Positions 4,315 through 63,614 of a stretch of 64,000 bases of DNA are shown here, one piece after another (positions within the stretch are counted from its first letter, which is position 1; each line of letters starts with the position of its first letter). The DNA comes from Pseudomonadota bacterium. GTDB taxonomy: Bacteria > Pseudomonadota > Gammaproteobacteria > Steroidobacterales > Steroidobacteraceae. Made by a program: the position numbers and the translations under genes. The stretch is taken from contig JADJBE010000026.1 of NCBI GenBank assembly GCA_016703895.1, positions 320,814 to 384,813 on the forward strand, written 5' to 3'. A model generated the notes under the pieces. The model was given only the letters and a program-made list of their open reading frames with translations. It had not been told where the DNA came from and made no database searches.

Positions 4315-4316
4315 CT

Positions 4317-4913: not shown

Positions 4914-4920
4914 GGCGCGA

Positions 4921-5565: not shown

Positions 5566-5702
5566 TTATTCCGACTTGAAAGCGAAACGTTCCGGGAGCA
5601 ACATGAAACCGACTCTCACGGATGCGCGCGCAGCATACCAGCGGCGCACGCAGCTCGCGAAACAGTCAACGTGAACTCGGGGGCGATTCGGAGGGTATTG
5701 CG

Positions 5703-6023: not shown

Positions 6024-6025
6024 CG

Positions 6026-6406
6026 CTAGTCGGCGACCAAGATCGACGGATCGACGTCGGCGGCTAACAGCACGTAGCCATCAGCGACCGTGACGGGCAC
6101 GGGCAGCAGCCCCTGCCCCACGCAGGGCCCCGCCACGCAAACGCCGGTCGCTTTCTCAAACACCGCACCATGCGAGCTGCATACGATCAGGCTGCCGTCC
6201 GGCGTCAGGAATTTGTGCGGTCGTAAATTCAAGCCATGGCCTGCGTGCGGACAGCGATTGACGTAGGCGGCCACAACACCTGCGGATGTTTGCACGACCA
6301 GGCCTCGCAGAGGCCAGTTACCCGTCCCGATGGTAAACTCGCGACAACCCTCCGCCGTCAGCTCTGCCAGCGAACACAACACTCGCTCGAGGTCGATCTC
6401 GGCCAT
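6026..6406 (-). CDS. Rieske (2Fe-2S) domain protein
   Basis: Rieske ligand boxes CPHAGHG and CSSHGAVF. ATG 6406 avoids overlap with ampG (stop at 6411); the track ORF extends to 6445. Confidence 0.85.
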   Translation of the reverse strand: MAEIDLERVLCSLAELTAEGCREFTIGTGNWPLRGLVVQTSAGVVAAYVNRCPHAGHGLNLRPHKFLTPDGSLIVCSSHGAVFEKATGVCVAGPCVGQGLLPVPVTVADGYVLLAADVDPSILVAD

Positions 6407-6410
6407 GTCA

Positions 6411-7733
6411 CTAACTATTTGATTTACCCGCGGTACCGAGCGCACTGTCCACCAGTCCGGCGCGCATCATGTACCAGAACAGCAGTACGCCGGGGAAGGC
6501 GATCACGGTTGTCAGCAGGTAGAAATTGACATAGCCGAGATTTTCGATCAGTGCCCCCGCGGTCGTGCCGGTCAACAAGCGTCCGACGACGCTAGCGCCG
6601 GCCGAGATGAGCGCGTACTGGCTCGCCGTGAAGCGCAGATTGCAGAGCGCCGAGAAGAACGCAACGACCACCACGCCACCGAAGCCACTGGCGAGATTCT
6701 CAAAACCAATGGCACCCGCCATGCCCCAGTTACTGTGCCCCGCCATGGCGAGCAACGCGAAACTCAGGTTGGATATCGCCATCAGTATCAGTGCTAACAA
6801 CACTGACCGCTTTAAACCCATCCTGGCGTAGAGCACCCCGCCAATGAAAATGCCGATCAGATAGGCCCAAAAGCCGAAACCCACATCGTAGATGGCGATT
6901 TCATCATTGCTGAATCCCAGATCGTTGAACAGCAGCCGAAACGTGAGGTTCGCAAGCGTGTCCCCGACTTTGTGTACTAACACGAACAGCAGCACGAGCA
7001 GCGCGCCCGAGCGCTGCAAAAACTCCGTGAACGGTTCAATAATCGAACGCCAGATCTCAGCCAGCCCCCGCTTCTCGATCGTAACAACGTGACGCTGCGG
7101 CTCGCCGACGATCAGCCCGGTCAACATGGCGGGTAGCGCGAACGCCGCGCAGGCAATATAGGCCGCCGACCAACCCAGCCGGTCAGCGACCACCAACGCC
7201 AGCGCGCCGGCACTGACAGAGCCGATACGCCAACCATACTGCGACATGCCTGAACCCACACCTAACTGGTAAGGCTTGAGAGTTTCGATGCGATAAGCAT
7301 CGATGACGATGTCGTAGGTGGCGCCGGCGACCCCAACGAGTACCGCCGCGACAATCGTCGCCTGAATACTGGCGCTCGGGTCCACTAGCGCGAGATTGAC
7401 AACCGCTGCGATGACCAACACGCCGGCAAACAACAGCCAGGAGACCCGCTGGCCCAGCCGCCCCAGTAGCGGCAGCCGCACACCGTCGACCACCCACGCC
7501 CAGAGGACTTTCAGGTTGTAGACCAGAAACGCGAGCGTGAAGGCAGTGACGGTTTTCTTGTCGATGCCATCCTGCGCGAGGCGAGTCGTCAAAGTCGCGC
7601 CGATCATGGCGTACGGAAAGCCTGATGAGACACCGACAAAGAACGCCGCCAGCGACTCCTTCTCAAGATACGGCGTGATCGACGCCCACAGTCCGCGCGG
7701 CGCAGGCGTCGCGCGCACCTCAGACTCGCTCAC
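6411..7733 (-). CDS. ampG: AmpG-family muropeptide/MFS permease
   Basis: 440 aa, about 12-14 TM. N-terminal ..LAAFFVGVSSGFPYAMIGATLTTRLAQDGIDKKTVTAF matches the AmpG signature region. Confidence 0.85.
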   Translation of the reverse strand: MSESEVRATPAPRGLWASITPYLEKESLAAFFVGVSSGFPYAMIGATLTTRLAQDGIDKKTVTAFTLAFLVYNLKVLWAWVVDGVRLPLLGRLGQRVSWLLFAGVLVIAAVVNLALVDPSASIQATIVAAVLVGVAGATYDIVIDAYRIETLKPYQLGVGSGMSQYGWRIGSVSAGALALVVADRLGWSAAYIACAAFALPAMLTGLIVGEPQRHVVTIEKRGLAEIWRSIIEPFTEFLQRSGALLVLLFVLVHKVGDTLANLTFRLLFNDLGFSNDEIAIYDVGFGFWAYLIGIFIGGVLYARMGLKRSVLLALILMAISNLSFALLAMAGHSNWGMAGAIGFENLASGFGGVVVVAFFSALCNLRFTASQYALISAGASVVGRLLTGTTAGALIENLGYVNFYLLTTVIAFPGVLLFWYMMRAGLVDSALGTAGKSNS

Positions 7734-8515
7734 GCTCGGTCACCCGCCGCGATCGAGTAGTCCATGATCAGTGGCGCATGGTCGGAAAACCGTTGCTCTT
7801 TGTAGATGCTGGCCGCGCGCACCTTGTCACCAAGTCCGGCGCTGACAATCTGGTAGTCGATCCGCCAACCCACGTTCTTCGCCCAGGCCTGACCACGATT
7901 GGACCACCAGGTGTACTGGTCAGGCGATGGATCGACACGCCGAAACGCATCGACGAAGCCGCTCGGTCCGAACACCTGGTCCAGCCATTGACGTTCCTCG
8001 GGCAGAAAGCCCGAGTTCTTCTGGTCGGCGCGCCAGTTCCGAAGGTCGATCTCTCGGTGAGCGATATTCCAATCACCGCACAACACGTACTCGCGGCGAC
8101 GACGGCGCATCGCACGGAGATGCGGCTCAAAGGCCGCCAGAAAGCGGAACTTGGATGCCTGCCGCTCCGGCCCCGTCGACCCCGACGGTAGATAGAGCGA
8201 CACCACGGAGAGACTACCGATCTGCACTTCGAGGTAGCGTCCCTCGGCATCGAACTCCTTGACGCCGAAGCCACGGATAACCTTGGTGGGCGGCAAGCGT
8301 GTGTAGACAGCTGTGCCGGAATAGCCCTTGCGTTCAGCGTCGAAGAAGAACGACTGGTAGCCAGCCAGATCGCAGCCATGTTCGGCTAACTGGTGCTCCT
8401 GTGCCTTGGTTTCCTGCAAACAGATGACGTCGGCGTCCTGTTGCAGAAACCACTGGAACACGCCCTTGCGAGCCGCCGAGCGGATTCCGTTGACATTCAG
8501 CGTTATGATTCGCAC
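7730..8515 (-). CDS. xthA: exodeoxyribonuclease III
   Basis: 261 aa. [14 protein letters not shown]....[18 protein letters not shown] and SDHAPL motifs of the EEP/ExoIII family. 4-nt overlap with ampG. Confidence 0.92.
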
Positions 8516-49109: not shown

Positions 49110-49652
49110 ATGCGTACCTTTAATTCTGTTCGACTGCCGTTGCGGGCCGTGGCTATTGCCATGGCTTTTTCTCTCGCCGCCCTGTCCACCGCGGCAGTCG
49201 CAGCGGACGACGGCATGAAGAGCAGCAAAGCTGCGAAACAAGCCGATATCGTCGATACGGCGGTTGCCGCTGGCCAGTTCAAGACTTTGGCGGCAGCACT
49301 TACGGCAGCGGACCTGGTGGCGACACTGAAGGGCGCTGGACCCTTCACCGTTTTCGCCCCGACGGACGAGGCGTTCGCGGCGTTGCCGGCTGGCACCGTC
49401 GACAACCTGCTGAAGCCTGAAAACAAGGCCAAGCTGCGGAAGATCCTGACCTACCACGTCGTCCCCGGCAAAGTCACGGCTGCCGAAGTGGTCAAGCTGA
49501 GCAAAGCCAAGACGGTGGAAGGCCAGTCGGTCGCCATTGCCGTGAAGGACGGCAAAGTGATGGTCGATGGCGCGACAGTGGTTAGCGCCGACGTGATGGC
49601 CAGCAACGGCGTCATTCACGTGATCGATGCCGTCATCCTGCCCAAGGACTAA
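49110..49652 (+). CDS. fasciclin (FAS1) domain secreted protein
   Basis: 180 aa. A signal peptide, then [19 protein letters not shown]...[13 protein letters not shown] and ..[13 protein letters not shown] motifs. Confidence 0.9.
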
Positions 49653-50620: not shown

Positions 50621-51142
50621 TTAACGAGCCGTTAGGTCAGCCGTTGGACCAATCGTCGGACGATACATTGCGACCAGATTGCGGCCGTTGCCCTTCGCTT
50701 CCTGCAGCGCCGTGCGCGCCGCCTCGATCAGTTGGTCCGCGCTCAAATTGTCCCAGCCGGTGACAAAGCCGATGCTCACTGTCAACTCGAACTCCGGCGG
50801 CACGTTGAGCTGCACGGCGGCCCGCAATGCCTCGACCAGCTCGGCGGCGACGAGCGCTTCGGTGTTTGGCATCAGCCACGCGAAGCGATCTTCACAGAGA
50901 CGCGCCACTAGGTCGTCATGCCGACCCGTACCCGCAATCAGCCGGGCGATACGCACCAGCTCGCAATCACCTGTCGCCGAATCGTAGCGGGCATTGAAGG
51001 CAGTGAAATGATCGACGTTGACCAATGCCAGAGACACGGGTGCCCGCAACGGATCAGCCGCATGGCAAACATTCGCCAGCACTCCAAGAAAATGGTCAGC
51101 GCTCGCGACACCTGTCAACGGATCGATCGCTAACCCTGTCAT
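50621..51142 (-). CDS. stand-alone degenerate GGDEF-domain protein (CEDRF in place of GGDEF; RxxD I-site retained)
   Basis: 173 aa with no sensor or TM domain. Reads DPLTGV...VNVDHFTAFNARYDSATGD...GRHDDLVARLCEDRFAWL...TVSIGF...ALQEAKGNGRN. RHDD sits exactly 5 residues before the degenerate active-site pentapeptide. Confidence 0.8.
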   Translation of the reverse strand: MTGLAIDPLTGVASADHFLGVLANVCHAADPLRAPVSLALVNVDHFTAFNARYDSATGDCELVRIARLIAGTGRHDDLVARLCEDRFAWLMPNTEALVAAELVEALRAAVQLNVPPEFELTVSIGFVTGWDNLSADQLIEAARTALQEAKGNGRNLVAMYRPTIGPTADLTAR

Positions 51143-51291: not shown

Positions 51292-52428
51292 TCAGTTGAG
51301 GATCCGCAGCACCACACGTCGATTGGCGAGTCGACCCGGCTCGGTGTTGTTATCAGCAATCGGCTGACTCTCGCCGTAGCCTTTGGCCGAGAACTCGTTC
51401 TTCACGCCGCTGTCGCGCAGATACGCCATCACACTGGCTGCGCGGCGTTGCGACAAATTGAGATTGTAGGCGTCGGAGGAACGGCTGTCGGTGTGACCTG
51501 CCACCTCGATGTTCAACTCCGGGTAGCGGCGCAGCGTATCCGCCGCGGCGTTCAAAATCCCGAACGATTCTGGCAGGAGCTTGTCGGAATCGCTCGCGAA
51601 GTTCACGCCATCCAAACGGATTTCCTTGCCGAGCGAACAACCCTTCGCATCCACGCGATCGCCTGCTGGCGTCGTGGGACATCGATCGGCACTGTTCAGT
51701 ACGCCATCACGGTCATCATCGCCGTCGAGCGGACAACCCACCGCGTTGACCTTGCTGCCGGCCGGGCTGGTCGGGCACTGATCCTTGTCGTTAGCCACGC
51801 CGTCACGGTCGTCATCGGGCTGCGGACAGTTGGCCGCATAGCGTTCGGCATCGGCAGCCATCCGTTCAGCTTCGTCGATATTGAAGCGCGCGTGCCGCCA
51901 ACCAGTTTCCTGATAGTCGTGGCCCGCCTCGTTCAGTTTGACTTCCAGGCACGCCGTCTCGAGAGTGGCGCAGCGAAAGCCGGGCGACCCCTTCAATGTC
52001 TCGATCTTGGCCCATAGATCGTCACGAATCTTGGTGACCGTCGCGATCTGCTTTGGCGCAGCCATCTCTGGCCGTGCGCCCGTCTCCATGACATCGAGGA
52101 TGCCATCGGCCTCAGTCAGCGCCGATTCGATCACCCGACTACGATCGTTCTCGTGGTATTCCTCCAGCGCGAACGACACCCAGCACTGCGCTTTTGCGAG
52201 ATGGTAGTCCCGCACTGGCACACCACCGTCGTTCAGCGCCTTGATGCGGGTCTGGAAGCCCTCGATCGAGTCGAAATCCTTACGAATCACGCTGTCGACG
52301 ATCCGGCCCTCCTCAGCGCCGGTCAGCACCTGAGGTGCCTCAGCGTCGACGGGTTTTTGTGCGTTCGTGCCGCAAGCGCTGAGCGCGAATGCCACGAGAC
52401 CAAGAGTTGCTATGCGAGTTGTCATCAT
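51292..52428 (-). CDS. OmpA-family peptidoglycan-binding lipoprotein with thrombospondin type-3 (calcium-binding) repeats
   Basis: Lipobox FALSAC. Helical N-domain. Two TSP3-like repeats (DDDRDGVANDKDQCPTSPAG; DDDRDGVLNSADRCPTTPAG). C-terminal OmpA domain (NIEVAGHTDSRSSDAYNLNLSQRRAASV...NRRVVLRI). Confidence 0.88.
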   Translation of the reverse strand: MMTTRIATLGLVAFALSACGTNAQKPVDAEAPQVLTGAEEGRIVDSVIRKDFDSIEGFQTRIKALNDGGVPVRDYHLAKAQCWVSFALEEYHENDRSRVIESALTEADGILDVMETGARPEMAAPKQIATVTKIRDDLWAKIETLKGSPGFRCATLETACLEVKLNEAGHDYQETGWRHARFNIDEAERMAADAERYAANCPQPDDDRDGVANDKDQCPTSPAGSKVNAVGCPLDGDDDRDGVLNSADRCPTTPAGDRVDAKGCSLGKEIRLDGVNFASDSDKLLPESFGILNAAADTLRRYPELNIEVAGHTDSRSSDAYNLNLSQRRAASVMAYLRDSGVKNEFSAKGYGESQPIADNNTEPGRLANRRVVLRILN

Positions 52429-52446
52429 AATCCTATCTCTGTGACC

Positions 52447-55400
52447 CTATCTCTGAAGGGAGTTGTTCCAGGAGCGGTCGCGACTGCTGAACAGTTTTTC
52501 ATCGAATTTGAAGCGCAGCCGGATATAGGCACCGCGCCGTGTGTAATCGCTGTCGACAAGATCGTCGTCGCTGAAGCCCGAGAAGTTGTAGCCCACTGAC
52601 AGCCACAGGTTGTCGATCAACGAGTAGCCAGTCTCGAAGCCGAGACCTAACTGCTGTGCCCCCTCGCCATCAAACACGCTGCCGACCAAACCGACGTCCC
52701 AGCGCTCGGTCAAGTCGTACATCACCCGGCCTGACACGAGGTAAGCCGTGAAGCTGTCATCGACGGCGCCGAAACTCTCGTCCACCCACTTACCCGCCAA
52801 CTGGCCCGACAGGGTGAGCGTGCGCCGCGGCTTGAAGTTGGTATGCAGCGAGACCACGTGCGCTTTGCGATCGAAGGGATCAAGAAGCGCGGTGTCTTTC
52901 TCGAGCTTCAACTCGTAACGCATCAGCGAGTTCCAGCGGTTGGTATCCGTGTCGCGGAACGCAGCGCCGACGATCGCGCGATTAATCATGCGTTCACCGA
53001 GCGCCAGGTCTTGGTTGTCCGTTGACGAGTAGACGTTGCGGGCAAGGAAACTCCAGTCGCGTGACAGCTTGCGGGTGTACGCCAGCGTCGACAGGTAGGT
53101 GTTAGACGCCTCATCGTCACGGAACTCGAACCGTGCGCTCGTCTTGTAGAGCTCGCGCGCGGTGTATTCCACGCCGACACCCACCGCCGTCGCATCGCCT
53201 TGCTGGCCTGCCACTGCCTGCACGCGCTCGAGACTGGTGCTGAAGGCCAAGCCTTCACGCACCGGCCAGAGGTTACGCAAGCCGACCGCCGCTTCGCCCT
53301 CGCGACCCGGCAGCGCATCACGCATCCGGTATTCGGAGAACACGCTGCCGTCTTCCATGTAAGCCGAGTCCACGCCAAACACGGTGGCACGGCGCGACTC
53401 GCCCTCGTTCAAGCCATAGAGACTCGAGATGCTCTTGGCGTACTCGTGTCGGACGTAGAGCCGAGCCTTGTCGAGCACCTGGTACTCGCCGCCGACACCG
53501 TAGGCATAGGCGTCACTGTCGTCGATGCCCTGCTCGCCCTCCACATCGACCAAAGACTTCTCCTTGATCTTTGCCGACAGCTTCAAGCGGCCGGTGGTGT
53601 TCTGACCGGAGGCAAGGCCGCCATTTTGATAGGCGCCCACCGGTAGTGAGCCCGACGTCTGGAAGTTGTAGACATTCGAGAAGGTGGTGGCGTTCTGCAC
53701 CGGGGCACCTGCTTGTACTTCGTCGTCGAAGTAACGCAGGCCGCCCTCGAGATGAAAGATATCGTTGAACCAGTGGCCCAGGGAGATCTGCGCACCCAAA
53801 CGCTCGGCACCGATGTTGGCATCCTCGGTCTGGATCGCCTCGACCATGAGGTCCGTGGCCTCACTGAAACTGTAGGTTGCCTTGGCACTCGCCTCCTGAC
53901 GGCCCTCACTCAGGACCGCGAGCGGATTGTCGAAGTCGTCAGTGGTACGACCGTAGAACAGCCGCGCGTCGAGCTTTTCACCCTCATGACGTAGCTCAGT
54001 GCGAAAGCCATGACCCTTCGACTCGAGCTGCACTAACGAATTGTCGCGGTCGCTCTGCGCGGCCTCGATGAGCCAGGTCGTGGCATCGCCGAGCTTCAGC
54101 GTCGCGTTAGCACTGCCGAGTGAGTACGGCGTGTTCGGGTCGTCGTCCATCGCATAGCTCACGCCGAGCTCCAATCGGCCGCCCAGTGTCCACTGGGCAT
54201 TGACGCCGCCGACCCAGAACGCAGGGCCACCCTGGTCCACTTCATAGGTGACGCGGATCGACACCGGGTTCAGCCGCTCGTCCAGCGACGGGATCGGCTT
54301 GCGGAACAACAAGCGGCCCGTTAAGGGCTCGAACTCGTAGTCCGCAAACCGTGCTAACGACTGAATTGAGAGAATCACCGACGGCTGGTTGCGGTCGCGG
54401 ACGATCAACTCGATCTTTTCGCTGTTGGTGATACCGTTGCTGCTCGAGACGGCATAGGGACCCGAAATGCCGCGCCCCGGTTGTTCGTCGATCACTTGCC
54501 GCACGGAATCGCGTGCACCCCACAGGTTGCTGACGAAATTGCCACTCTCATAATGGTGCTTGCCGCCCGTGACGCTGCGGCTATAGAGGCCCAAGCTGCG
54601 CGCTTCGTTAACGCCATCCTCACTGTTGAAGTCACCAAACAACAGGAACGACTTGTCCTGATCGACCCGCAGATAGCCGCGGCGCGACGACTGGGCGTCA
54701 AAGCCACGGATGCTGGCGTCACCATAAATCGGGTAGAACTGATCCGGCTGGATGTCGCGGAACAGCCGGATTCGATCCTTATCAGTATCGAGAGCCGCCG
54801 TGACCAGGTACTTCTCGCGCCAGGTGTTCTTCAGAAAGAACGCAGCGCGGCCACCAAAAAACGTGTCGTCGCGACTGTCAGGGTTGTTCAAGCTCGAGAG
54901 CTCTTCCTCGAGACCGTCACGGAAGACCGTCGGCGTGTTGGCATCGCTCGACGTGCTGTTGAAAGAGACGATGCCTTCAATAATTCCGACGGCGAGTGCG
55001 GGCCGCAGGTCTGGCACGAAGGAGATCTTCCCATCCACTGTCACATCACCAGAGTACGCACGGATGACCGCATCGCCTGGTTCATAGGGCGCAATGAGCG
55101 TCACTTCGGCGACGCCGTTCTCCACCATGATCTGCGTCCCCGGCTCGCGTCGATCGCGGTCGGCGAGGAACTTGGGCGCTTCTTTCACAAAGTAAGTGTC
55201 CTGCGTCAGCACGCGGCCACGACTCGCCTCAAACGTCACCTTGGTAGGCGCTGTCAGTGGCAGGCCATCGGCATCAAACAATTCGATCGAGATGCGCACC
55301 TCAGACTGACCGTCCGCCGGCACACCATCCCGATAGATCGAGACCTTCATGGCCTGTTTGTGAGTCAGGGACTGAGCCCGCGTTTCAGCGGACAGCAGAC

Positions 55401-55701
55401 GCGAGGTGGGCCCCGGCGGCAGCGAGCACATGCCCGACTGCAGCTTCGGCGGCTCGATACCATCGTAACGACCTGGTTGATCGGTACACGCCGGCATCAC
55501 CTCGCCGTCGCTTACCGGCCGTATCGGATCCTGAGCGAACGCCGTTGGGACGAACACTTGGGACGCGAGCGTGACCCCGGCCAGTACGGCCCAAACTGCC
55601 ACTCTGACGGTAGCGCGTGGCTCGGTGCGCTGTTCAGTGCGTGCCATATGACTAACAGGCATGACTTCGATTCCATTCTTCAAATGCGTGTGAGTGCTCA
55701 T
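52447..55701 (-). CDS. very large outer-membrane beta-barrel protein with N-terminal Big_1-like Ig domain
   Basis: ATG 55701-55699 overlaps the giant gene's TAA (TAATG); alternative starts are 55662 and 55647. Signal peptide ..VAVWAVLAGVTLASQVFVPTAFA. Big_1-like segment VPADGQSEVRISIELFDADGLPL...ENGVAEVTLIAPYEPGDAVIRA. After that, roughly 850 aa of alternating beta-strand pattern end in GAYIRLRFKF, followed by a short tail. Confidence 0.75.
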   Translation of the reverse strand: MSTHTHLKNGIEVMPVSHMARTEQRTEPRATVRVAVWAVLAGVTLASQVFVPTAFAQDPIRPVSDGEVMPACTDQPGRYDGIEPPKLQSGMCSLPPGPTSRLLSAETRAQSLTHKQAMKVSIYRDGVPADGQSEVRISIELFDADGLPLTAPTKVTFEASRGRVLTQDTYFVKEAPKFLADRDRREPGTQIMVENGVAEVTLIAPYEPGDAVIRAYSGDVTVDGKISFVPDLRPALAVGIIEGIVSFNSTSSDANTPTVFRDGLEEELSSLNNPDSRDDTFFGGRAAFFLKNTWREKYLVTAALDTDKDRIRLFRDIQPDQFYPIYGDASIRGFDAQSSRRGYLRVDQDKSFLLFGDFNSEDGVNEARSLGLYSRSVTGGKHHYESGNFVSNLWGARDSVRQVIDEQPGRGISGPYAVSSSNGITNSEKIELIVRDRNQPSVILSIQSLARFADYEFEPLTGRLLFRKPIPSLDERLNPVSIRVTYEVDQGGPAFWVGGVNAQWTLGGRLELGVSYAMDDDPNTPYSLGSANATLKLGDATTWLIEAAQSDRDNSLVQLESKGHGFRTELRHEGEKLDARLFYGRTTDDFDNPLAVLSEGRQEASAKATYSFSEATDLMVEAIQTEDANIGAERLGAQISLGHWFNDIFHLEGGLRYFDDEVQAGAPVQNATTFSNVYNFQTSGSLPVGAYQNGGLASGQNTTGRLKLSAKIKEKSLVDVEGEQGIDDSDAYAYGVGGEYQVLDKARLYVRHEYAKSISSLYGLNEGESRRATVFGVDSAYMEDGSVFSEYRMRDALPGREGEAAVGLRNLWPVREGLAFSTSLERVQAVAGQQGDATAVGVGVEYTARELYKTSARFEFRDDEASNTYLSTLAYTRKLSRDWSFLARNVYSSTDNQDLALGERMINRAIVGAAFRDTDTNRWNSLMRYELKLEKDTALLDPFDRKAHVVSLHTNFKPRRTLTLSGQLAGKWVDESFGAVDDSFTAYLVSGRVMYDLTERWDVGLVGSVFDGEGAQQLGLGFETGYSLIDNLWLSVGYNFSGFSDDDLVDSDYTRRGAYIRLRFKFDEKLFSSRDRSWNNSLQR

Positions 55702-58700
55702 TAGCGCGACCCTCCACGCTTGCGGCTCGTCTTCGGTGCGGGCCGACAACTGGTATTGCTTTCGCGGTACACGCCGTCCGCAGACTGCCGCGTCAACTCG
55801 CAGCGCGTGTCCTTGCGTGAGTCGAGCGTCAGCGCGGGTACGTCATCGCCCTTCTCGACTTCAGGCGCCGCGACTTCACCGAGACTGGCGCGACGGCCAA
55901 ACACCTGGCCCATCACATCGCTCGAGCAGTTGCGCACATGGAAGTCAGCGCGGTGCAACTCACCGTTCCGAAGATCAACGAAGCGCGAGTCCGCATCGCC
56001 TGCATTGCGCGTATCGACGGTGTCGAGCAGCGCGCCCTTGGGCAGCGTCGATCGGTCCACCTTCAGCACGTGCGTGATCGGCTTCAGACCACAGTAGGAG
56101 TACTTGCCCTCGGAGTCCGAGATCAGGTAGGTGCCATCCTCGAAGTACAGGCGTACGCCGGGTACACCCACTTCTTCGTGGTCCTGGACGTCGTTCTCGT
56201 TGCAGTCCGCGTAGATCTTGCCGATGACACAGGCCTCAGTGGTGAATACACCGCCTAACACCTTAACCTTGGCACGACCCTCGTTCGAGCTGACCGCATC
56301 GGACACCGCACGAGCACGGTTTATGCCATCGCCCTGTTGCGCGCCCACGCCGACACGCACTCGATAGGTGAGCGTCATCGCCTGGTTGGCCGGCAGCGGC
56401 GACATGATCGGGAACGTCAGGATCGGGCCTGGCGCACCCTCGGGATCGGCAAACTCGACCGCACCCGCGCTGCCTGGCAACAGGATGCGCGAGGTGCCTT
56501 CGATGTAACGGAAGCCGAGCGGCAGACGATCGGTGATCGTCAGATCCGGCAAGCCGCCACCTTGAACGTTGCGCACAACGATCGTGTAGCGCACCGAGTC
56601 GCCCAACTCGACTTCGTCGTCGTCGACGGTCTTCTCGAGCGAGATGATCGACGGCACGACCGGGTCCAGCGGGATGTGGTTATGCACCAGACCCAGCGTC
56701 GCGGAGCCAAACACAATCTGGGTGTAGTAAGTCGTGCTCGCGCCGACCGGTGGTGCTGTCGCCTGCGGCTGGATCGCAACCACGCCGGCGCCATTCTGCG
56801 CCGTGAAGCTGCCGGAGGTCGGGATCAGTGTCGACGGCGCGGTATACAGCGCCGGCGGCGTAGTCACCAGCTCGAACGTACATGAGGCCGGCGCGTTGGC
56901 CCCTAACAGGAACTGGTAGTAACCATTGCTGCCGGTCGTCATCGAGATCGCCGAACCGCTGATGGTGTAACCACCGGCACCGGCATTGACGATCATCGTG
57001 GCCGGATCGTAGGTCGGGCATGAGCCAACCGGTTGTAGTGTAACGGTTGCACCGGACACCACTTCGCGCGTCACGGCGTCGTAGACGACACCTGACGGGT
57101 CGACCGGCAGACTCTGCTGCGGAATGTTGCCACCTGGCGGCAGCACCACTTCGAGCGCGCCGCGCGGATTGCCGGGCGCGAGCTGTGAGCCAGCCTGTGG
57201 ATTGCCTGTGTTGCCATTGACCGGTACTCCGTAGCCCACGCCGCTCGTTGGATCACGGAACAGCACATTGTAAGTGCCCGGGATGACGGCGAGGAACGAG
57301 TAGTTACCCGCGGCGTCCGTCTGCGTCGTGCGTACGGGCGCTGTCCCTGCCGGCGCGTTCGGATCAACCAGATCAACGACCCAGCCTGGTAGGGGCGTAT
57401 CGCCCGCGTCACGCTGGCGGCCGGTCTGACCGATATCGAACCACACGGAGCCTGAGATCTGGCCGCCCTGCTGCAGTGGCACAGACAGAGTGGATTCGTT
57501 GTTGCCCTGCAAGCCATTCGGCTCACCACCGCCGTCAACACGAACCGTGTTCACCAGTGGCGAGTTGGCGGCAGCACCCGCTGCGACATTTACGTTGAGC
57601 GTGATGGGCGCGGCCGTGCCGCCATTTGACGCCAGTACGACCGAGCTCGTACAGGTCGCGGTCTGACTACCCACGACTGTGGTCGCGCAGTTCCAGCCCG
57701 TGCCAGTCGGAATCTCGGCCACCGTCATGCCTGCCGGCAGCGTATCGACAACCGTATAGACACCGGTCGTATCGAGCGCTAGCGCGACGTTGCTGACAAC
57801 AATCGAGAACGTACCGCGGTTGGCTTCAGTGAAGATCGCCGGTGTCGCCGTCTTGACGACCGTGGCGTCAGGCCCCAGGTAGCGGAAACCGACTGGCGTC
57901 GCGGTGCCTGTGCCGCCGAGCGGCACGTTGACCGTCTGCGGGTCGTTAGCCGTGGTCAACTCGGTGCCGGCCGGATCGGTGACGTCCGCTTGTGTCGGCC
58001 CCGCTGGGACCGGAATGCGGTAGTCGCCGTTGCCGTCGGTCGTGACAGTGAGCGTGCGGCCATCGGAGGCCTGTACAGTGACCACCGTGTTAGTCAGATT
58101 CGGCTCGCCCGTATCCTGGACGCCGTTGTTGTCCGGATCAAAGAAGGCACGCCCCACCAGGAAGGAGGGTGTCTCGGCAAAGTTGAAGGCGACACCCGTG
58201 CCGCCCGCGGGCACAATTATGTTGCTGATCACGCTGGTGCCCGCTGCGCCAGCCGTGCCGGTTGGCGCGCCGCCGAAGTTGCCCGGCGTATCCGTGCCGT
58301 CGGCATAGCTCGCCGGCTGCGTCTGCGTGACCGTGTAGGTACCCGCCGGCAGGTCGTTGAAGAGATAGGCACCGTTCGCATCGGTCGTGACGACGCAGGT
58401 CGTGATGACCGTACACACGTCCGCGCCGCCCAAAGTCGTTCCTGACAGCGTGAGCGTCACATTCGGCAGACGGTCTTCGCCCGCGTCGGCGACGCCATCA
58501 TTGTTCAGGTCGACGTATGAGACGCCGGCCAGGCTCGCCGGTCGTTCGCCGAAGTTGTAGTTCATCGCAGCCGCGCCCGTGGGCAGCACGATTGCGCTGA
58601 TCACGTCGTTAGTCGCTGCCGACCCTGTGGCAGTGCCATTGATCTGGCCGACTGATTCGGCACCGTCTCCGTACTGCGTCAGCGGCGCATTGGTCTGTGG

Positions 58701-61700
58701 TTGCTCAGTGAGCGTATAGCCGGTGCCATCGCTGCCCGGCAAGCTCGGGAAGCCGTAGTTGCCGTTGGCATCCGTGATTGCCGTACAGGGGTTCGGGCTG
58801 ATCACGGTGCAGACGTTCACACCATTCGCGGCGTTGCCGGACACCGTGACCGTGACTCCCGGGATGCCCCGCTCGCCCGTGTCGCGCGTGCCGTTGCCAT
58901 TGGTGTCGACGTAGACCGAGCCGCTCAGGCCCTGGCCTTGTACGCCGAAGTCGTAGTTCTGGCCGTTCGCGCCAGCGGTCACCGGGATCGCGGCCGATAC
59001 ATTCGTGCCGACGCTCGGGGTGTTAGCGCCCTGACCGTTACCACCCAACGTACCGTTAAAGGTGCCAGTAGTCGTGAGCCCCGGTATGGTCGTTTGCGTA
59101 AGGGTATAACTACCCGGGCGCAAGGTTGCGCAGAGCGGATTCGGATCGCCTGTCACCGGGAACGCGTAGGTCCCCGTCGCCGAGGTGGTTGTCGTGCAAT
59201 TGACTGCTTGCGCCGTGTCCGTCGTACCGGTTAGGGTGATCGCGACACCCGCAACACCCGCGTTCTCGGTACCTTCGCGGACCGCGTTAGCGTTCGGATC
59301 GATATAGACACGGCCTGAAAGCTGTGCGCCAGCGAGTTCGCCGAAATTGCGCTCGGTCAGGTTCGCCGCTGGATTGACCACGATCGCGCCAGTTCCTGGG
59401 ATGGTTTCACCCACCGGTCGACCGCGGCTGTTGGCGATGACATTACCCACGCCCGCGCCGTTCTGGTCCGCGCCATCGGCAAAGCCCGTTGGCTCGTTGA
59501 CCTGCGTGACCACGTAGCCCGTGGCGTCCGAGGGCGGCAGGTTATTGAAGGCATACGCGCCGCTGGCATTCGTGTTCTGCGTCAGCGAAATCGCATTGCC
59601 CGCATAGTCCGTACCTGATAGACGGATCTGCACTGGGTTGGAGGTCCCGTTGATGCCCGTCTCGCCGCCTTCGCGGTTGCCGTTATCGTTGGCATCGACA
59701 TAGACAAAGCCGGACATCTGCGCCAGTGCGTATTCCTGGAAGTTGTAGTTAGTGGCCTGGGTGTTCGCCGGCAGCGTAAGGCCGCTGATGCGGTTCTGCG
59801 TCGCGGTGTTGCCGCAGTTCGCCGCAGGCGGGCAGTTGGGCGACGCCGTGCCGCCCGCGCCCGTACCGACAAACTCCGCGCTGTCGACGAAGGCACCCGG
59901 CTGGGTCTCGGTGATCACGTAGTCGCCAGGCGGCAGATTGTCAAAGAGGTACGTACCCGCACCGTTGGTCTGCACGGTGACGGCTGGGCCTGCGCCGATC
60001 GCGTTGCCGTAGATGTCTGTGCCGGTCAGCGTGAGCGTGACGCTACCGATCGCCTCGCCGGCCCCGAACGTGTCGTCACGGTTATTGTCAGCGTAGACAT
60101 TACCCGCGAGACTCGCACGCTGCACTTGCACCACAGCCGACTGCGAGTTGTTGCCGGGCACCGTGTCGCGCGACACCGGGTTGCCGCTGCCATCGAGGCC
60201 GGGGGAGATCGTTGCCGTGTTGGTAACGTTGCTGCCAATCGCGCCGGTGTACGGGTACACCGGCCGCGCGATGTAGTGCAGCGTAATGGTATTGGTCGGA
60301 CCAGGCAGCAGGCTGCCGTCGAGCGCACAGGTGACCGTCGTTGTGCCGGTGCAGTTCAGACCAGTGACGGTGGCGCTACCGCCCCACTCGCCCGCCGGCG
60401 CGGTCACGCTGCCGACTAGCTGAAAGCCAGGTGGCAGCACATCCACGATCCGTGCCTGGTTCGTCGGCGACGGACCATTGTTTCGAATCACCACCGTGAA
60501 CTCGGTCGGCTGGTTCACATTGACCGGCGACGCCGTGACCAGTGTCTTGCTGATGGCCTCAAGATCGGTCGACGGCAGCACGGTGGTGTTTTCAGATACC
60601 GTGTTGTTCAGCGGCAGCCTGTCGTAACCACCGATCGATTCGTCCGAACGTACCTGCGCACCATTGACGAAGGTGAGCGACCCCGAGGGCGCCGGACCAG
60701 CCACGGTGAACGTCACGTCAAAGCGGATGATTTCGCCCGGATCGAGATAGTTGTTGGCGGCTGTCGGTGATGCCACACAACGAATTTGTCCCACCACTGG
60801 CGCGTCGATCGTACATACCGGCGCACGTGGCGCGGTCGTATTGGTCGTACCGAGCACTACGGTCGTCGGTGTCATCGTGTAGCCCGGCGGCGGTGCCGCG
60901 GGTATGTCGATCAGCTCAACATTGGTTGCCCGTGACGGACCATCGTTCTGAATCGTTACTTGGTAGGCCAGCGGATCGCCATAGGGGAGCGGATCACCAC
61001 CGACCGGTTCCTGCTTGGTGACGAGCAAATCGAGATCTGGCACGATCACGTCATGCGTAGCAGAGCGGGAGTCCACCGCCGCGTTCACGCCCTGATCCGT
61101 CACCGTGGTGATGGTTGCGGTGTTGGTGTGCGTGCCCGGATTCGGCGGTGTACCCGGGAATGGGTAGCGGGGAATCGCCTGGAACGACATCTGAAAGGTC
61201 TGGCCGCGCGTCATCGTGCCCATCGGGCAACTCGCCACGTTGGCAACAAACGTACACGTGACACCTGACCTGGTCGTACTGACCGAGCCTGCCGTCACAG
61301 TAAAACGCGTCGGATCGATTGGGTCGCTAACCACCACTGACGAGGCGGGAGTGGGACCGACGTTGCTGAAGCTGATCGTGTAGGTGAACGGCACGCCAAC
61401 CACGACCGGATTGGGATTGACCGTCTTCTGCGTAACCGTGACGTCCGCGATCGGGTCGATCGTGACCTGCGCCGGATCAGAGTTGTTGCCGCTGTTCGAA
61501 TCAACGGCATCCGGCGAGCTGACGAACGCCTGGTTATTGAACGTACCACTCTCAACTGACCGGGCCATCTCGATCAGAATCGTGCGCGATTCCGCCGGCG
61601 CCAAGTTGGTGAGTGTGCAGGTTACACTCGCTCCAGAACGCGTGCAGCTGTCACCCGCGGGTGCAGTCAGTGTCACCCCCGAAGTAAATGGTGCTGCACC

Positions 61701-63614
61701 AATATACTCACCGAGGGTATTAGCTACCCTGACCGTCGGCGCCGTATCCGGGCCGTTGTTGGTAACAACAAGGCGCCAGACGTAGTTCGACTGGGCCGTC
61801 GGAATGGTGAGCGATTCGACGAACGGGCCGCCGGTCGTGGAGCCGACGGTCTTATCGATCGATAGATCGACCGTACGCGTGGTGGCGACAATACCAATGT
61901 TGCCCGTGCAATCGTTGGAATCGCCGGTCGGGTCGAGTGGCGTCGCCAGTGAGTTCGCAGTGGAACCGGTACACGCCTGGTTGGTGATCGTCGGGAACGG
62001 CGGCGCGCCGCCGATACCGGTTGCCTGACTCGTTAGCTGAACGCTGGTGGTAGCACCGTTGGCGATCGATCCCGAGCCAGTTGTCTCGCAGGTGACCGTC
62101 GCGGGCCCAGGAATCGGACCGGCCGGGCACGTCCAGCCCGCCGTCAGCACGCCGGTGAAAATCTCATTTGCCCCGAAGGCGTCGGTAATTCTCAGTGGCG
62201 TCAACGGCGTGTAGGTCGAAGCAGATACACCGTTGTTACGAACAACAATCGTCGAGGTAATCGTCGCACCTTGCGAGACGGGATTGGGCCCCTTGGTCTT
62301 GGTTACCGACAAGTCGGCGAACGGCTCGACCACCGTGAACGGTGTCGTCGCATTGTCGTTGCCCGGGATCGGATCCGTGATGCCGCTCGGTGGCGTGACT
62401 AGCGCCGTCAAGTTGCCGGAGGTCGCCACCGACGGCGTCGTCGCCGGAAGCACGAAGACTTGGTTGTTACCCGACGCAATCGTGCCGGACACACAGGTCA
62501 CGGTCCAACCGACGCCGACGCTGCCAGTTGGCGTGCAGCCCGCAGGCATCGTACCGAGCACGAAGCCGGCGGGGATTGTACCCGCGATCGTGGCGCCGCT
62601 TACAGTGGCAGGGCCTAGATTGCTCAGCGTGAGCGGAATCGTGACCGCGATGTTAGTCGTCGCGGGATTGCTGGCCATACTAACTTGCGCCCGCAGATCC
62701 GCTCCTGGCGTGACAGTGACGACAACGTTCGGCGTGACGTCATTTGACGCGTCGCGATCGAGAATCAGGCTGTTGCTGGAGCCGATCTGCGCCGAGTTAG
62801 TGATGGTGCCAGTGATGCCGCGGTTAATGCGGCCGGATATCGTGATCGGCGGATAGTTGCCCACGCCGATTGCGGCACCGAAGTAGACGCAGACGACGTT
62901 CGGTACGCCAGCGTTGACGGTGCAGCCCCAGCTAGTGCCGCTCGCGGTGACGTTGTTGAGATCGGTTTGTGGCGGCAGAAAGTCGGTCACCTGCACGGCG
63001 TTGCTCAAATCTGGTCCGGCATTGCTCGTCGCAAGGGTGTACGTAAGCGTTGCGCCGCCTGGCAGCGTCGTCGCACTGGGTGTCTTGGTGATCGCCAGAT
63101 CGACGCCCAATCGAACCGTAGGATTGCGGCTGGTGTTGTTGTTGAGCGTATTGGGATCGGTCGTACCGACGGGCGGTGCAATTGACGCGCTTGTTCCAGC
63201 GGATGACGGCGCCGTGATTGCCGATGCGGTGTAGACCGTGTCGACCGACGCAGCAGAAGGGAATGGCGTAATCGGACAGGCTAGAACCTGCGCGCCGACG
63301 GCACCCGACAGTGAACAGGAGGCCGGAAAGGCTAAGCCAGGTTGGTTAGCAACTTGAAAGCTCGGGGCTAAGTTGACCGTCAAGACCGCGCCGTTTGCGG
63401 CACTGGGCCCATTGTTAGTAGTACGAACAGTAAACTGAACCGCCGCGCCGTTAGGCACGGGGTCCGGTGTCCAGGTGTACGCCGCAACCGATACGTCGGC
63501 GCTCTGCGCCGCCGCCGTGCCCGGAGCACCGAGGCTCGCCAGCGCGACTGCTGCAACCGCCCAGTAGCCAAGACCACCACGCACTTTGCGCACCGTGGCT
63601 GCCACAGACCGCAT
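55701..63614 (-). CDS. giant secreted repeat protein (about 2,637 aa): DUF11 'conserved repeat domain' modules plus SdrD-B/Cna-B-like modules
   Basis: ATG 63614 gives MRSVAATVRKVRGGLGYWAVAAVALASLGAPGTAAA|Q (a Sec signal). There are 8 N-terminal DUF11-like modules (D[LV]x[IV]xK...N.GP...V.D.LP.GF, each with a Cys pair), six tandem SdrD-B-like modules (G.VY.D.N.NG..D.GE.G...V.V.L....), further Cna-B-like and two more DUF11 modules, a final SdrD-B-like module and a basic tail. The 7.9-kb ORF is uninterrupted. Confidence 0.85.
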   Translation of the reverse strand: MRSVAATVRKVRGGLGYWAVAAVALASLGAPGTAAAQSADVSVAAYTWTPDPVPNGAAVQFTVRTTNNGPSAANGAVLTVNLAPSFQVANQPGLAFPASCSLSGAVGAQVLACPITPFPSAASVDTVYTASAITAPSSAGTSASIAPPVGTTDPNTLNNNTSRNPTVRLGVDLAITKTPSATTLPGGATLTYTLATSNAGPDLSNAVQVTDFLPPQTDLNNVTASGTSWGCTVNAGVPNVVCVYFGAAIGVGNYPPITISGRINRGITGTITNSAQIGSSNSLILDRDASNDVTPNVVVTVTPGADLRAQVSMASNPATTNIAVTIPLTLSNLGPATVSGATIAGTIPAGFVLGTMPAGCTPTGSVGVGWTVTCVSGTIASGNNQVFVLPATTPSVATSGNLTALVTPPSGITDPIPGNDNATTPFTVVEPFADLSVTKTKGPNPVSQGATITSTIVVRNNGVSASTYTPLTPLRITDAFGANEIFTGVLTAGWTCPAGPIPGPATVTCETTGSGSIANGATTSVQLTSQATGIGGAPPFPTITNQACTGSTANSLATPLDPTGDSNDCTGNIGIVATTRTVDLSIDKTVGSTTGGPFVESLTIPTAQSNYVWRLVVTNNGPDTAPTVRVANTLGEYIGAAPFTSGVTLTAPAGDSCTRSGASVTCTLTNLAPAESRTILIEMARSVESGTFNNQAFVSSPDAVDSNSGNNSDPAQVTIDPIADVTVTQKTVNPNPVVVGVPFTYTISFSNVGPTPASSVVVSDPIDPTRFTVTAGSVSTTRSGVTCTFVANVASCPMGTMTRGQTFQMSFQAIPRYPFPGTPPNPGTHTNTATITTVTDQGVNAAVDSRSATHDVIVPDLDLLVTKQEPVGGDPLPYGDPLAYQVTIQNDGPSRATNVELIDIPAAPPPGYTMTPTTVVLGTTNTTAPRAPVCTIDAPVVGQIRCVASPTAANNYLDPGEIIRFDVTFTVAGPAPSGSLTFVNGAQVRSDESIGGYDRLPLNNTVSENTTVLPSTDLEAISKTLVTASPVNVNQPTEFTVVIRNNGPSPTNQARIVDVLPPGFQLVGSVTAPAGEWGGSATVTGLNCTGTTTVTCALDGSLLPGPTNTITLHYIARPVYPYTGAIGSNVTNTATISPGLDGSGNPVSRDTVPGNNSQSAVVQVQRASLAGNVYADNNRDDTFGAGEAIGSVTLTLTGTDIYGNAIGAGPAVTVQTNGAGTYLFDNLPPGDYVITETQPGAFVDSAEFVGTGAGGTASPNCPPAANCGNTATQNRISGLTLPANTQATNYNFQEYALAQMSGFVYVDANDNGNREGGETGINGTSNPVQIRLSGTDYAGNAISLTQNTNASGAYAFNNLPPSDATGYVVTQVNEPTGFADGADQNGAGVGNVIANSRGRPVGETIPGTGAIVVNPAANLTERNFGELAGAQLSGRVYIDPNANAVREGTENAGVAGVAITLTGTTDTAQAVNCTTTTSATGTYAFPVTGDPNPLCATLRPGSYTLTQTTIPGLTTTGTFNGTLGGNGQGANTPSVGTNVSAAIPVTAGANGQNYDFGVQGQGLSGSVYVDTNGNGTRDTGERGIPGVTVTVSGNAANGVNVCTVISPNPCTAITDANGNYGFPSLPGSDGTGYTLTEQPQTNAPLTQYGDGAESVGQINGTATGSAATNDVISAIVLPTGAAAMNYNFGERPASLAGVSYVDLNNDGVADAGEDRLPNVTLTLSGTTLGGADVCTVITTCVVTTDANGAYLFNDLPAGTYTVTQTQPASYADGTDTPGNFGGAPTGTAGAAGTSVISNIIVPAGGTGVAFNFAETPSFLVGRAFFDPDNNGVQDTGEPNLTNTVVTVQASDGRTLTVTTDGNGDYRIPVPAGPTQADVTDPAGTELTTANDPQTVNVPLGGTGTATPVGFRYLGPDATVVKTATPAIFTEANRGTFSIVVSNVALALDTTGVYTVVDTLPAGMTVAEIPTGTGWNCATTVVGSQTATCTSSVVLASNGGTAAPITLNVNVAAGAAANSPLVNTVRVDGGGEPNGLQGNNESTLSVPLQQGGQISGSVWFDIGQTGRQRDAGDTPLPGWVVDLVDPNAPAGTAPVRTTQTDAAGNYSFLAVIPGTYNVLFRDPTSGVGYGVPVNGNTGNPQAGSQLAPGNPRGALEVVLPPGGNIPQQSLPVDPSGVVYDAVTREVVSGATVTLQPVGSCPTYDPATMIVNAGAGGYTISGSAISMTTGSNGYYQFLLGANAPASCTFELVTTPPALYTAPSTLIPTSGSFTAQNGAGVVAIQPQATAPPVGASTTYYTQIVFGSATLGLVHNHIPLDPVVPSIISLEKTVDDDEVELGDSVRYTIVVRNVQGGGLPDLTITDRLPLGFRYIEGTSRILLPGSAGAVEFADPEGAPGPILTFPIMSPLPANQAMTLTYRVRVGVGAQQGDGINRARAVSDAVSSNEGRAKVKVLGGVFTTEACVIGKIYADCNENDVQDHEEVGVPGVRLYFEDGTYLISDSEGKYSYCGLKPITHVLKVDRSTLPKGALLDTVDTRNAGDADSRFVDLRNGELHRADFHVRNCSSDVMGQVFGRRASLGEVAAPEVEKGDDVPALTLDSRKDTRCELTRQSADGVYRESNTSCRPAPKTSRKRGGSR
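57890..60115 (-). repeat. tandem array of six SdrD-B-like coding modules (period about 370-400 nt) inside the giant gene
   Basis: The module-initial motifs GNVYADNNRDD, GFVYVDANDNGNREGGE, GRVYIDPNANAVREG, GSVYVDTNGNGTRDTGE, GVSYVDLNNDGVADAGE and GRAFFDPDNNGVQDTGE map near 60105, 59715, 59330, 58930, 58530 and 58160. They are divergent at the DNA level. Confidence 0.7.
60116..63497 (-). repeat. array of eight DUF11-like coding modules inside the giant gene
   Basis: Module starts: ADVSVAAY, VDLAITKT, ADLRAQVS, ADLSVTKT, VDLSIDKT, ADVTVTQKT, LDLLVTKQ, TDLEAISKT. Each has an x-N-x-G-P core and a C...C pair. Boundaries are approximate. Confidence 0.6.

Follow-up and report, generated by a model that had tools for sequence, protein, structure and literature searches.

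A conserved module pairing a giant fibrillar protein with a very large predicted outer membrane barrel and an OmpA-family lipoprotein, with autotransporter-like features

Introduction

How might a fibrillar protein of more than 2,600 residues, with a Sec signal peptide as its only recognizable export signal, cross the outer membrane of a diderm bacterium and stay attached to the cell? The question is raised by three adjacent genes in a 64,000-nucleotide stretch of a Steroidobacteraceae genome (GenBank assembly GCA_016703895.1, contig JADJBE010000026.1, positions 320,814 to 384,813 of the forward strand), which was analyzed as a whole and is called the window here. The genes encode a giant fibrillar protein, a protein with a very large predicted beta-barrel and an OmpA-family lipoprotein, and an earlier note, written from the bare sequence, had proposed that they form an undescribed unit for the export or anchoring of a surface protein. 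Our work shows that the three-gene module is real, conserved, and apparently undescribed. It is the minority form of its family, however, as about 70% of the relatives are single chains in which passenger and barrel are joined. We lean slightly toward the view that the module is an autotransporter-like unit for the display and anchoring of a giant surface fiber, built on an unrelated and much larger barrel.

Results

Three overlapping or adjacent genes. Giant, barrel, and lipoprotein are encoded in this order, head to tail, by the minus strand. The giant fibrillar protein gene (55701..63614, with the ATG at 63614 and the TAA at 55701-55703) encodes 2,637 amino acids; the longest open reading frame (ORF) begins ahead of this ATG, at a GTG at 63647. 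The gene of the outer membrane mega-barrel protein (52447..55701; ATG at 55699-55701, stop at 52447-52449) encodes 1,084 amino acids, and that of the OmpA-family outer membrane lipoprotein (51292..52428) encodes 378. At the candidate translational-coupling junction between giant and barrel (55699..55715, minus strand), a GGAGG within the last codons of the giant (55711-55715) lies 9 nucleotides upstream of the barrel ATG, and the TAA of the giant and the ATG of the barrel have one A in common (TAATG, 55699-55703). The barrel stop is separated from the start of the lipoprotein gene by 18 nucleotides. Both the overlap and the gap, from which tight co-directional packing had been claimed, are exact. 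A 2.17-Mb contig of assembly GCA_963853375.1 and contigs from wastewater metagenomes have a sequence identical to that of the window, and the genes publicly called on them fit our coordinates, the giant of 2,637 residues included.

The barrel is always found with the C-terminal module of the giant. Homologs of the barrel are numerous. A word-indexed search returned at least 908, nearly all of them unnamed, an exhaustive profile search yielded 2,478 clusters at 50% identity (E ≤ 1e-30), and when one genome was scanned per species, at least 559 species proved to have relatives. The carriers include Steroidobacteraceae, many Burkholderiales, Gallionella, Usitatibacter, Nevskia, and Lysobacter, as well as Geobacteraceae/Desulfuromonadales, Verrucomicrobiota, Nitrospirota, and Acidobacteriota; among named relatives, Steroidobacteraceae metagenome-assembled genomes (MAGs) are the closest.

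For a survey of loci, the proteins of the window were cut into pieces and searched against the ORFs of 80 retrieved loci, 73 of which had enough upstream DNA to be evaluated. The survey singled out the conserved C-terminal module of the giant, which we call giantC (55704..56657, minus strand; the last 318 residues, about 270 to 320 across relatives). A separate giant ending in giantC stands directly upstream of the barrel in 22 of the 73 loci, and giantC, an immunoglobulin (Ig)-like head, and the barrel share a single ORF in the other 51; a barrel without giantC was found in none of the 73. The adjacency of barrel and giant that had been suggested from the window hence holds across genomes, but the coupling is to giantC and not to giants rich in DUF11 domains generally. 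giantC is the sole part of the giant that always accompanies the barrel. Its identity across relatives is 41 to 66%, leaving aside the closest relative, L001 (95%), and is on a par with that of the barrel (38 to 62%, again outside the closest relative), while BLAST often finds no match for the remainder of the giant.

Fusions extend further. Among the 266 family proteins retrieved, 140 carry giantC and barrel in one chain and 4 are fusions of barrel and TSP3/OmpA. Another 6 combine giantC and barrel with a match to the TSP3/OmpA query, a match that P0312, one of the six, has upstream of the barrel; a single protein (P0341) unites giantC, barrel, the N-domain of the lipoprotein (ompaN, see below), and OmpA. 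Judged by these sequences, the majority or ancestral form is a single chain made of signal peptide, passenger, giantC, linker, Ig-like head, and barrel, and the family is best described as autotransporter-like, mostly single-chain, and occasionally split. In the fused proteins a disordered Pro/Ala-rich linker of about 100 to 200 residues and an extra Ig-like domain lie between giantC and the head. The split point of the window falls inside that linker, and the barrel half has acquired a signal peptide of its own. Split and fused forms occur together in the same genome in two cases, L003/L010 (assembly CADEHE01) and L038/L015 (Methylibium, JANNDW01).

An overlap of stop and start is kept at all 22 split loci, as ATGA, TAATG, GTGATG, or an ATG 8 nucleotides before the TAA, and a GGAG(G) stands just upstream of it in most of them (about 12 of 22). 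These junctions indicate translational coupling. The overlapping or adjacent genes, the constant association of giantC with the barrel, and the fusions in relatives make us nearly certain that the three gene products are functionally coupled.

The reverse search, from giantC to the barrel, relied on a small and biased sample of four short giantC-bearing ORFs, two of which are followed by a barrel. The two that are not (L086:6001-6978 and L087:6001-7122, both with 6 kb of downstream sequence covered) look like a truncated fused gene in one case and, in the other, like the frameshifted end piece of a giant with more than 2,200 residues in a Lysobacteraceae MAG. It may be that giantC is not strictly bound to the barrel, that these loci have decayed, or that the barrel is encoded elsewhere.

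A second type of operon surrounds some of the fused barrel genes (L006, L008, L016, L029, L033, L049, L055, L067, and L078). It encodes, in this order, a secreted single-domain DUF11-like protein of about 170 to 190 residues, a DUF11 protein of about 900 to 1,050 residues, the fused barrel (about 1,900 to 2,500 residues), and a further giant of 1,100 to 3,300 residues that has no barrel; the OmpA partner is often absent. The barrel-less giants downstream of fused barrels have a conserved C-terminal module of their own, of about 250 to 350 residues with 38 to 68% identity, which ends in VRVQP (L009:13960-19365, L022:14026-19386, L027:13017-20552, L034:13902-20426, L059:13900-21369, and L071:12655-20655). 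This module is distinct from giantC and may be a second docking or sorting module.

The giant resembles the stalk of fibrillar adhesins. The giant starts with a predicted Sec signal peptide (63504..63614, minus strand; MRSVAATVRKVRGGLGYWAVAAVALASLGAPGTAAA / QS, read from the translation, with a putative cleavage site). Pfam finds DUF11 in 9 stretches (260.7 bits, E = 1.8e-78; cutoff, 24.6) and SdrD_B in 8 (216.6 bits, E = 7.6e-65; cutoff, 29.7), and NCBIfam finds the TIGR01451 repeat. DUF11 now goes by the name CLIPPER; it is a CnaA-like domain that carries an intramolecular isopeptide bond, belongs to the stalk of fibrillar adhesins, and is also found in Gram-negative bacteria (bioRxiv 10.1101/2025.04.25.650565). 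With its tandem PF01345 and PF17210 domains, its length, and its signal peptide, the giant is a member of this CLIPPER/SdrD-B stalk group. It is rich in Thr, Gly, Ala, Val, and Pro and contains 36 Cys residues, mostly in close pairs; its gene has no tandem repeats at the DNA level.

The earlier note had seen no secretion signal in the giant beyond that for Sec, and our searches bear this out. At E ≤ 0.01, Pfam and NCBIfam returned Ig-like stalk and repeat families only, with no autotransporter, two-partner secretion (TPS), type IX secretion system (T9SS) C-terminal domain (CTD), or other sorting family, and a motif scan found neither the repeats-in-toxin (RTX) motif GGxGxD nor LPXTG nor CxxCH.

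giantC itself contains a single CLIPPER/DUF11 domain and a single SdrD-B-like domain, a conserved short helix motif (VL.QVKARR), and a basic, Pro-rich, and poorly conserved tail of about 50 residues. Within the last 330 residues of the giant, DUF11 covers residues 17-137 and SdrD_B residues 160-237. A PDB search matched giantC to the CLIPPER crystal structure 9IFR and to SdrD, and TIGR04226, an isopeptide-forming fimbrial domain, scores above its cutoff (41 versus 30 bits). The motif (Q/E)(G/A)TDS(A/S)(N/D)Q recurs in tails of split-form giants (L012, L043, L045, L047, L069, and L076, and proteins P0391 and P0450), which show little conservation otherwise; it is not clear in the tail of the window's own giant. 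A disulfide between Cys 2605/2623 in the tail of the giant and Cys 72/92 near the N terminus of the barrel protein was considered as a substitute for the peptide link of the fused forms and rejected, as these cysteines are absent from most split-form relatives.

The barrel protein is predicted to have about 40 strands. Its signal peptide (55534..55701, minus strand; residues 1-56) has a hydrophobic core at residues 31-44 and a putative cleavage site after AFA (54-56), before QD; AlphaFold2 models residues 31-44 as a helix, with low confidence on both flanks. The N-region is long, with about 30 residues before the core and two further in-frame Met residues, at positions 14 and 19, and the upstream ATG is the one that has a good Shine-Dalgarno sequence. 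Extended signal peptides are known in some type V proteins, and the long N-region resembles these.

The AlphaFold2 model of the barrel protein was built from 71 homologs and has a mean predicted local distance difference test score (pLDDT) of 72.6 and a predicted template modeling score of 0.69; from residue 480 on, the pLDDT is mostly 70 to 96, two long loops excepted. An Ig-like head (55015..55353, minus strand; residues 117-229) stands directly before the first barrel strand. The earlier note had called it a Big_1 domain. The assignment falls short of the Pfam cutoffs, with Big_1/Invasin_D3 matches of 18 to 24 bits versus 33 to 35, but an Ig-like fold is predicted: the model shows a beta sandwich of eight strands with a pLDDT of 82 to 90 over most of its length and an unmodeled loop at residues 169-186, and a PDB sequence profile gives invasin 1cwv for the head with E = 0.034.

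The beta-barrel region (52504..54996, minus strand; residues 236-1066) contains about 39 to 40 long predicted strands, counted by DSSP on the model. We infer from this strand pattern that the region forms one closed barrel. Counting strands by amphipathic periodicity on the alignment was too noisy to serve as an independent check, and only the conservation profile was kept from that analysis. The protein had been described as ending in RLRFKF; these residues (1061-1066) do belong to the last predicted strand, YIRLRFKF, but a tail of 18 residues follows.

The most conserved stretch of the barrel (54268..54786, minus strand; residues 306-478) is where the invariant columns cluster, with a block conservation of 0.70 to 0.78 versus about 0.5 elsewhere. 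It takes in two long loops, residues 306-341 and 409-478, and contains FRDIQPDQFYPIYGD, RQVIDEQPGRGISGPY, VRDRNQP, and DYEFEPFSGR. In the model these loops come after strands 3 and 7, on the face away from the N terminus, with low pLDDT at residues 310-333. Such strong conservation is unusual for exposed loops and suggests a conserved binding partner; we propose, on the basis of the model, that residues 306-478 serve in docking or as a constriction. After strands 1, 3, 5, and 7, the long loops would face outward or fold into the lumen. The other outward turns of the model are merely 2 to 4 residues long, and a barrel as wide as predicted must therefore be filled by something.

No Pfam or NCBIfam family scores above its cutoff with the barrel sequence; there are weak Pfam matches to OMP_b-brl and Porin_4, one homolog is labeled "predicted porin" in one source, and a PDB sequence profile gave nothing meaningful, finding only a fragment of the OmpT porin (2.5e-4). 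Foldseek searches of the PDB with the model returned generic large barrels only, with template modeling (TM) scores of at most 0.30 and 22 to 36 strands in the best matches. SlpA came top, and MtrB, LptD, TonB-dependent receptors, FimD, and SprA were also matched. None of the three findings that the earlier note would have taken as a refutation was made: by sequence the barrel hits no known translocator family, and by fold it resembles generic large barrels only; its homologs come with giantC, as neighbor or fused, in all 73 evaluable loci; and the giant shows no recognized secretion signal beyond that for Sec.

The lipoprotein has a family-specific N-domain. The third protein has the lipobox LSAC with the lipid-bearing position at Cys19, a six-helix N-domain at residues ~38-200, TSP3 motifs at residues 205-250, and an OmpA-like domain at residues 277-370. 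OmpA scores 69.9 bits in Pfam (cutoff, 27.2) and TSP_3 28.9 bits (cutoff, 25), and the two DDDRDGVxNxxD motifs are of the calcium-binding TSP3 type. The lipobox Cys, PF00691, and the TSP3 repeats place the protein among the OmpA-family peptidoglycan-binding lipoproteins, as the earlier note had read it. Foldseek matches to its model are dominated by the OmpA domain, which resembles OprF, OmpA, and Pal in fold (TM, 0.7 to 0.8). The profile of the Myxococcus outer membrane exchange protein TraB (NF033763) reaches 166.9 bits versus a cutoff of 700 and aligns with the TSP3 and OmpA part only (profile positions 306-497), and we rejected TraB as an identity for the lipoprotein.

The N-domain, ompaN (51829..52317, minus strand), has conserved Cys residues and a GWRHA motif and matches no Pfam family. 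AlphaFold2 models it as a six-helix bundle with disulfides (pLDDT, 90 to 98). All 96 detectable homologs consist of ompaN with OmpA or of ompaN alone, and several are on the same contigs as barrel homologs. ompaN follows the barrel directly in 20 of 21 split loci and in 18 of 49 fused loci. The proposal that the lipoprotein is a partner of the module holds for its conserved, family-specific helical domain, but many relatives can do without the OmpA/TSP3 part.

Comparison with known systems. In its workings the module comes closest to type V secretion, though it cannot be counted among types Va, Vb, or Ve. It shares with them the Sec-dependent export, the long Ig-like passenger with a barrel in one chain or in adjacent genes, the lack of any ATPase or inner membrane component encoded nearby, and a head that resembles invasin D3/Big_1. 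It differs in its ~39 to 40 predicted strands versus 12 (Va and Ve) or 16 (Vb) and in its dedicated lipoprotein partner. The passenger is N-terminal, as in type Va, and 51 of 73 loci and 140 of 266 proteins have the single chain of passenger and C-terminal barrel that marks this type, whereas the window has separate genes. Passenger and barrel are joined by CLIPPER and SdrD-B domains, a disordered linker, and one or more Ig-like domains instead of an alpha-helical plug, and no autotransporter beta-domain (PF03797) was found in the giant or the barrel with Pfam and NCBIfam at E ≤ 0.01. For type Vb, there is no match to ShlB, to polypeptide transport-associated (POTRA) domains, or to the TPS domain (haemagglutination activity domain), and the conserved module of our family is C-terminal. 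For type Ve, there is no match to IAT_beta, the domain order is reversed, and Big_1/Invasin_D3 stay below the cutoff.

Other secretion and envelope machines fit less well. Neither the module nor its neighbors encode a family of chaperones or ushers, and LptD, BamA/TamA (Omp85), and the outer membrane factors of type I secretion systems (T1SS) gave no family matches at E ≤ 0.01. No secretion system genes are found near the module in the window, and none recur across the 80 related loci. MtrCAB and LptDE also co-encode a large barrel with a lipoprotein partner, the barrel being paired, as proposed here, with a protein inside it, and MtrB and LptD are among the top fold matches of our barrel. However, there is no sequence similarity, TM scores are 0.14 to 0.30 (0.21/0.30 for MtrB), the MtrB_PioB family is not matched, and the multihaem motif CxxCH is absent from all three proteins; moreover, our barrel is about 50% larger than these 26-stranded barrels, and its partner is an adhesin-like fiber of 2.6 thousand residues instead of a carrier of electrons or a plug that handles LPS.

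T1SS adhesins of the LapA/MpIBP type are retained by a folded terminal module in a TolC-like channel, and the role that we propose for giantC, holding a giant, repetitive, calcium-binding adhesin by a folded terminal module, is similar. Unlike an RTX or Bap-like T1SS adhesin, the giant starts with a Sec signal peptide, lacks GGxGxD, and would carry its retention module at the C terminus, and no T1SS genes (ABC transporter, membrane fusion protein, or TolC-like) lie near the module. BapP (PMC12153261), a T1SS adhesin, was looked at and set aside as not relevant. A precedent for the lipoprotein is AtaA-TpgA, in which the N-domain of the co-transcribed TpgA binds the membrane anchor of the adhesin and its OmpA-like C-domain binds peptidoglycan (PMC12523085). 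The N-domain of TpgA is of the BamE-like alpha/beta type, however, versus a six-helix bundle with disulfides here, and our system has TSP3 motifs and a single ~40-stranded barrel instead of a trimeric one of 12 strands.

Very large single-chain barrels are also found in SprA, the 36-stranded T9SS translocon, which passes folded proteins, and in the 30-stranded connector SlpA, our top fold match, which joins the outer membrane to the wall. Our family has no sequence relationship to either (TM, 0.07 to 0.22), and T9SS genes, the CTD signal, S-layer homology (SLH) domains, and the coiled coil are all absent. SprA is still the largest barrel determined experimentally (2026 preprint). Solan et al. 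(2021) predicted from contact maps an uncharacterized superfamily of outer membrane beta-barrels with 38 or 40 strands, larger than any known one, and give no function, partner, or operon for it (PMC8346858). The strand number is about the same as the ~39 to 40 in our model, and this superfamily, with its families 002 and 003, may be the present barrel family. In the literature searched, we found no functional description of the module or of the barrel family.

Genomic surroundings. The module lies in ordinary chromosome, among genes for glutamate synthase, an EamA transporter, a fasciclin protein, histidine kinases, and metabolic enzymes, and the G+C content of the window is unremarkable. A gene at 50621..51142 (minus strand), 150 nucleotides downstream of the OmpA-family gene and on the same strand, encodes a GGDEF-only protein of 173 residues without a sensor domain; as it adjoins the module in only about 3 of the 80 related loci, it is probably not part of it. 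The gene of the fasciclin-domain protein (49110..49652, plus strand; 180 residues) is read in the opposite direction and lies between the glutamate synthase genes and the module. A scan for promoters and terminators gave counts not above those in shuffled sequence, and the only Rfam match in the window is a tRNA gene (2876..2946, minus strand). Far from the module, positions 4001..8000 have a high AT skew (0.19 to 0.23 versus about 0 to 0.1 elsewhere) and contain an ORF without a Pfam match (4955-5674) and, on the minus strand, a gene for a major facilitator superfamily transporter.

Discussion

How could the three proteins work together? We hypothesize that all of them cross the inner membrane by Sec and that the barrel, once inserted into the outer membrane, has its two termini in the periplasm. 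The C terminus of the barrel should be periplasmic because of the C-terminal OmpA fusions; if the strand count is even, the N terminus and the Ig-like head would therefore be periplasmic too. giantC would dock inside the wide barrel or at its mouth, against the conserved long loops, and serve as a stopper or socket, much as LapA-type adhesins are held in TolC-like channels by their retention module or as MtrA sits inside MtrB. The N-terminal string of about 17 predicted Ig-like domains, of the isopeptide type and calcium binding, would pass through the barrel and become a load-bearing adhesin stalk, and its calcium-dependent folding outside the cell could plausibly drive and rectify export and so give it direction. 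On the periplasmic side, the helical domain of the lipoprotein would bind the face or rim of the barrel, and its TSP3-OmpA part would clamp the assembly to peptidoglycan, so that the load on the fiber is passed to the cell wall, for which AtaA-TpgA is a precedent. In the window, the ancestral single chain would have been split in its disordered linker, with translational coupling keeping the two halves in step. The export, threading, or sheathing of the giant by the barrel, as well as the topology, is what we infer from these combined features.

Several observations weigh against this proposal. A location of the giant outside the cell or within the barrel is deduced from sequence and linkage, and by analogy with SlpA and OmpM a domain placed N-terminally of a C-terminal barrel would be periplasmic by default. 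The strand count and the closure of the barrel come from DSSP on one model of moderate confidence (mean pLDDT, 72.6). The split forms have no evident covalent link between their halves, since neither the cysteines in the tail of the giant nor those near the N terminus of the barrel are conserved. In the small and biased sample of short giantC-bearing ORFs, two of four have no barrel within 6 kb. Finally, the ompaN partner is missing from 31 of 49 fused loci, and the lipoprotein is therefore not essential to the family.

A bolder proposal, which we put forward only tentatively and consider less probable than not, is that the barrel represents a new class of outer membrane translocon. A single chain of about 40 strands, more than the 36 of SprA, would pass folded or partly folded Ig-like domains, retain giantC, be clamped to peptidoglycan by a helical lipoprotein, and serve a Sec-dependent passenger encoded in cis or in trans. 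Such a class would occur across thousands of environmental Proteobacteria, Verrucomicrobiota, Nitrospirota, Acidobacteriota, and Desulfuromonadales and would be unrelated to the Omp85-based and the 12-stranded type V systems.

Does the barrel need to export anything? Barrel and lipoprotein could form a socket for giantC that is tied to peptidoglycan, while the giant gets across the outer membrane in some other way, such as an unlinked type II secretion system or passage assisted by BAM, the beta-barrel assembly machinery, or by the translocation and assembly module (TAM) while the barrel is being assembled. BAM- or TAM-assisted passage during barrel assembly has been proposed for classical autotransporters. 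The linkage evidence suits anchoring equally well, some giantC-bearing proteins have no barrel nearby, and the extra giants in the operons of the fused type, which have neither barrel nor giantC, need another route or a barrel acting in trans. However, other secretion genes are absent from the window and do not recur in the 80 loci, about 40 strands are far beyond what an anchor needs, and in the fused forms the chain has to be threaded relative to its own barrel anyway. We regard a purely anchoring role as unlikely, though it deserves to be kept in mind.

We give somewhat less credence still to a scaffold within the envelope, in which the Ig-like string is not exported and remains in the periplasm as a tether or spacer in the manner of SlpA or OmpM. 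SlpA, a connector of outer membrane and cell wall, is the best Foldseek match, the order of N-terminal domain and C-terminal barrel predicts a periplasmic location by default, and both a peptidoglycan-binding partner and C-terminal OmpA fusions exist. On the other hand, more than 2,300 residues in about 17 tandem Ig-like domains would span several times the width of the periplasm, and CLIPPER and SdrD-B repeats are the stalk domains of surface fibrillar adhesins. In addition, the passengers of relatives vary greatly in length (about 300 to more than 3,000 residues) and in sequence, which is typical of exposed proteins, and the TM score to SlpA is just 0.20 to 0.22, with the SLH domain and the coiled coil missing.

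The operons of the fused type, with their ~190-residue secreted DUF11-like protein, ~1,000-residue DUF11 protein, and extra giant around the barrel, bring to mind a platform like an usher, which would assemble and export several CLIPPER subunits into a fiber, the giant of the window being one such subunit. The TIGR04226 match on giantC and the presence of the FimD usher among the fold matches point the same way. We find this quite improbable: there is no chaperone, sortase, or Pfam usher match in the module or its neighbors, the window encodes one CLIPPER protein only, the FimD match is weak (TM, 0.21 to 0.27; rank 30), and in relatives the partner is mostly fused to the barrel, which is unsuited to a processive platform. 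Chance adjacency to an unrelated porin, to which the "predicted porin" label and the weak OMP_b-brl and Porin_4 matches might point, is effectively refuted by the 73 of 73 loci across several phyla, the fusions in all combinations, and the conserved overlap of stop and start.

What would an autotransporter-like unit of this kind mean? Should the barrel region prove to be a single closed barrel of about 40 strands, no larger single-chain outer membrane barrel would be known, and questions would arise about its assembly by BAM and about how so wide a pore is sealed. Cultured carriers such as Janthinobacterium sp., Hydrogenophaga laconesensis BE240, Undibacterium terreum CGMCC 1.10998, and Ampullimonas aquatilis LMG 28208 make experiments feasible, and a possible use is the self-contained surface display of very long, isopeptide-stabilized fibers. 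The occurrence of the same machine as one chain or as two translationally coupled chains mirrors the relation of autotransporters to two-partner secretion on an unrelated scaffold. For many of the giant fibrillar adhesins in Gram-negative bacteria, neither a route across the outer membrane nor an anchor in it is established, and the family described here offers a testable answer for a large group of them.

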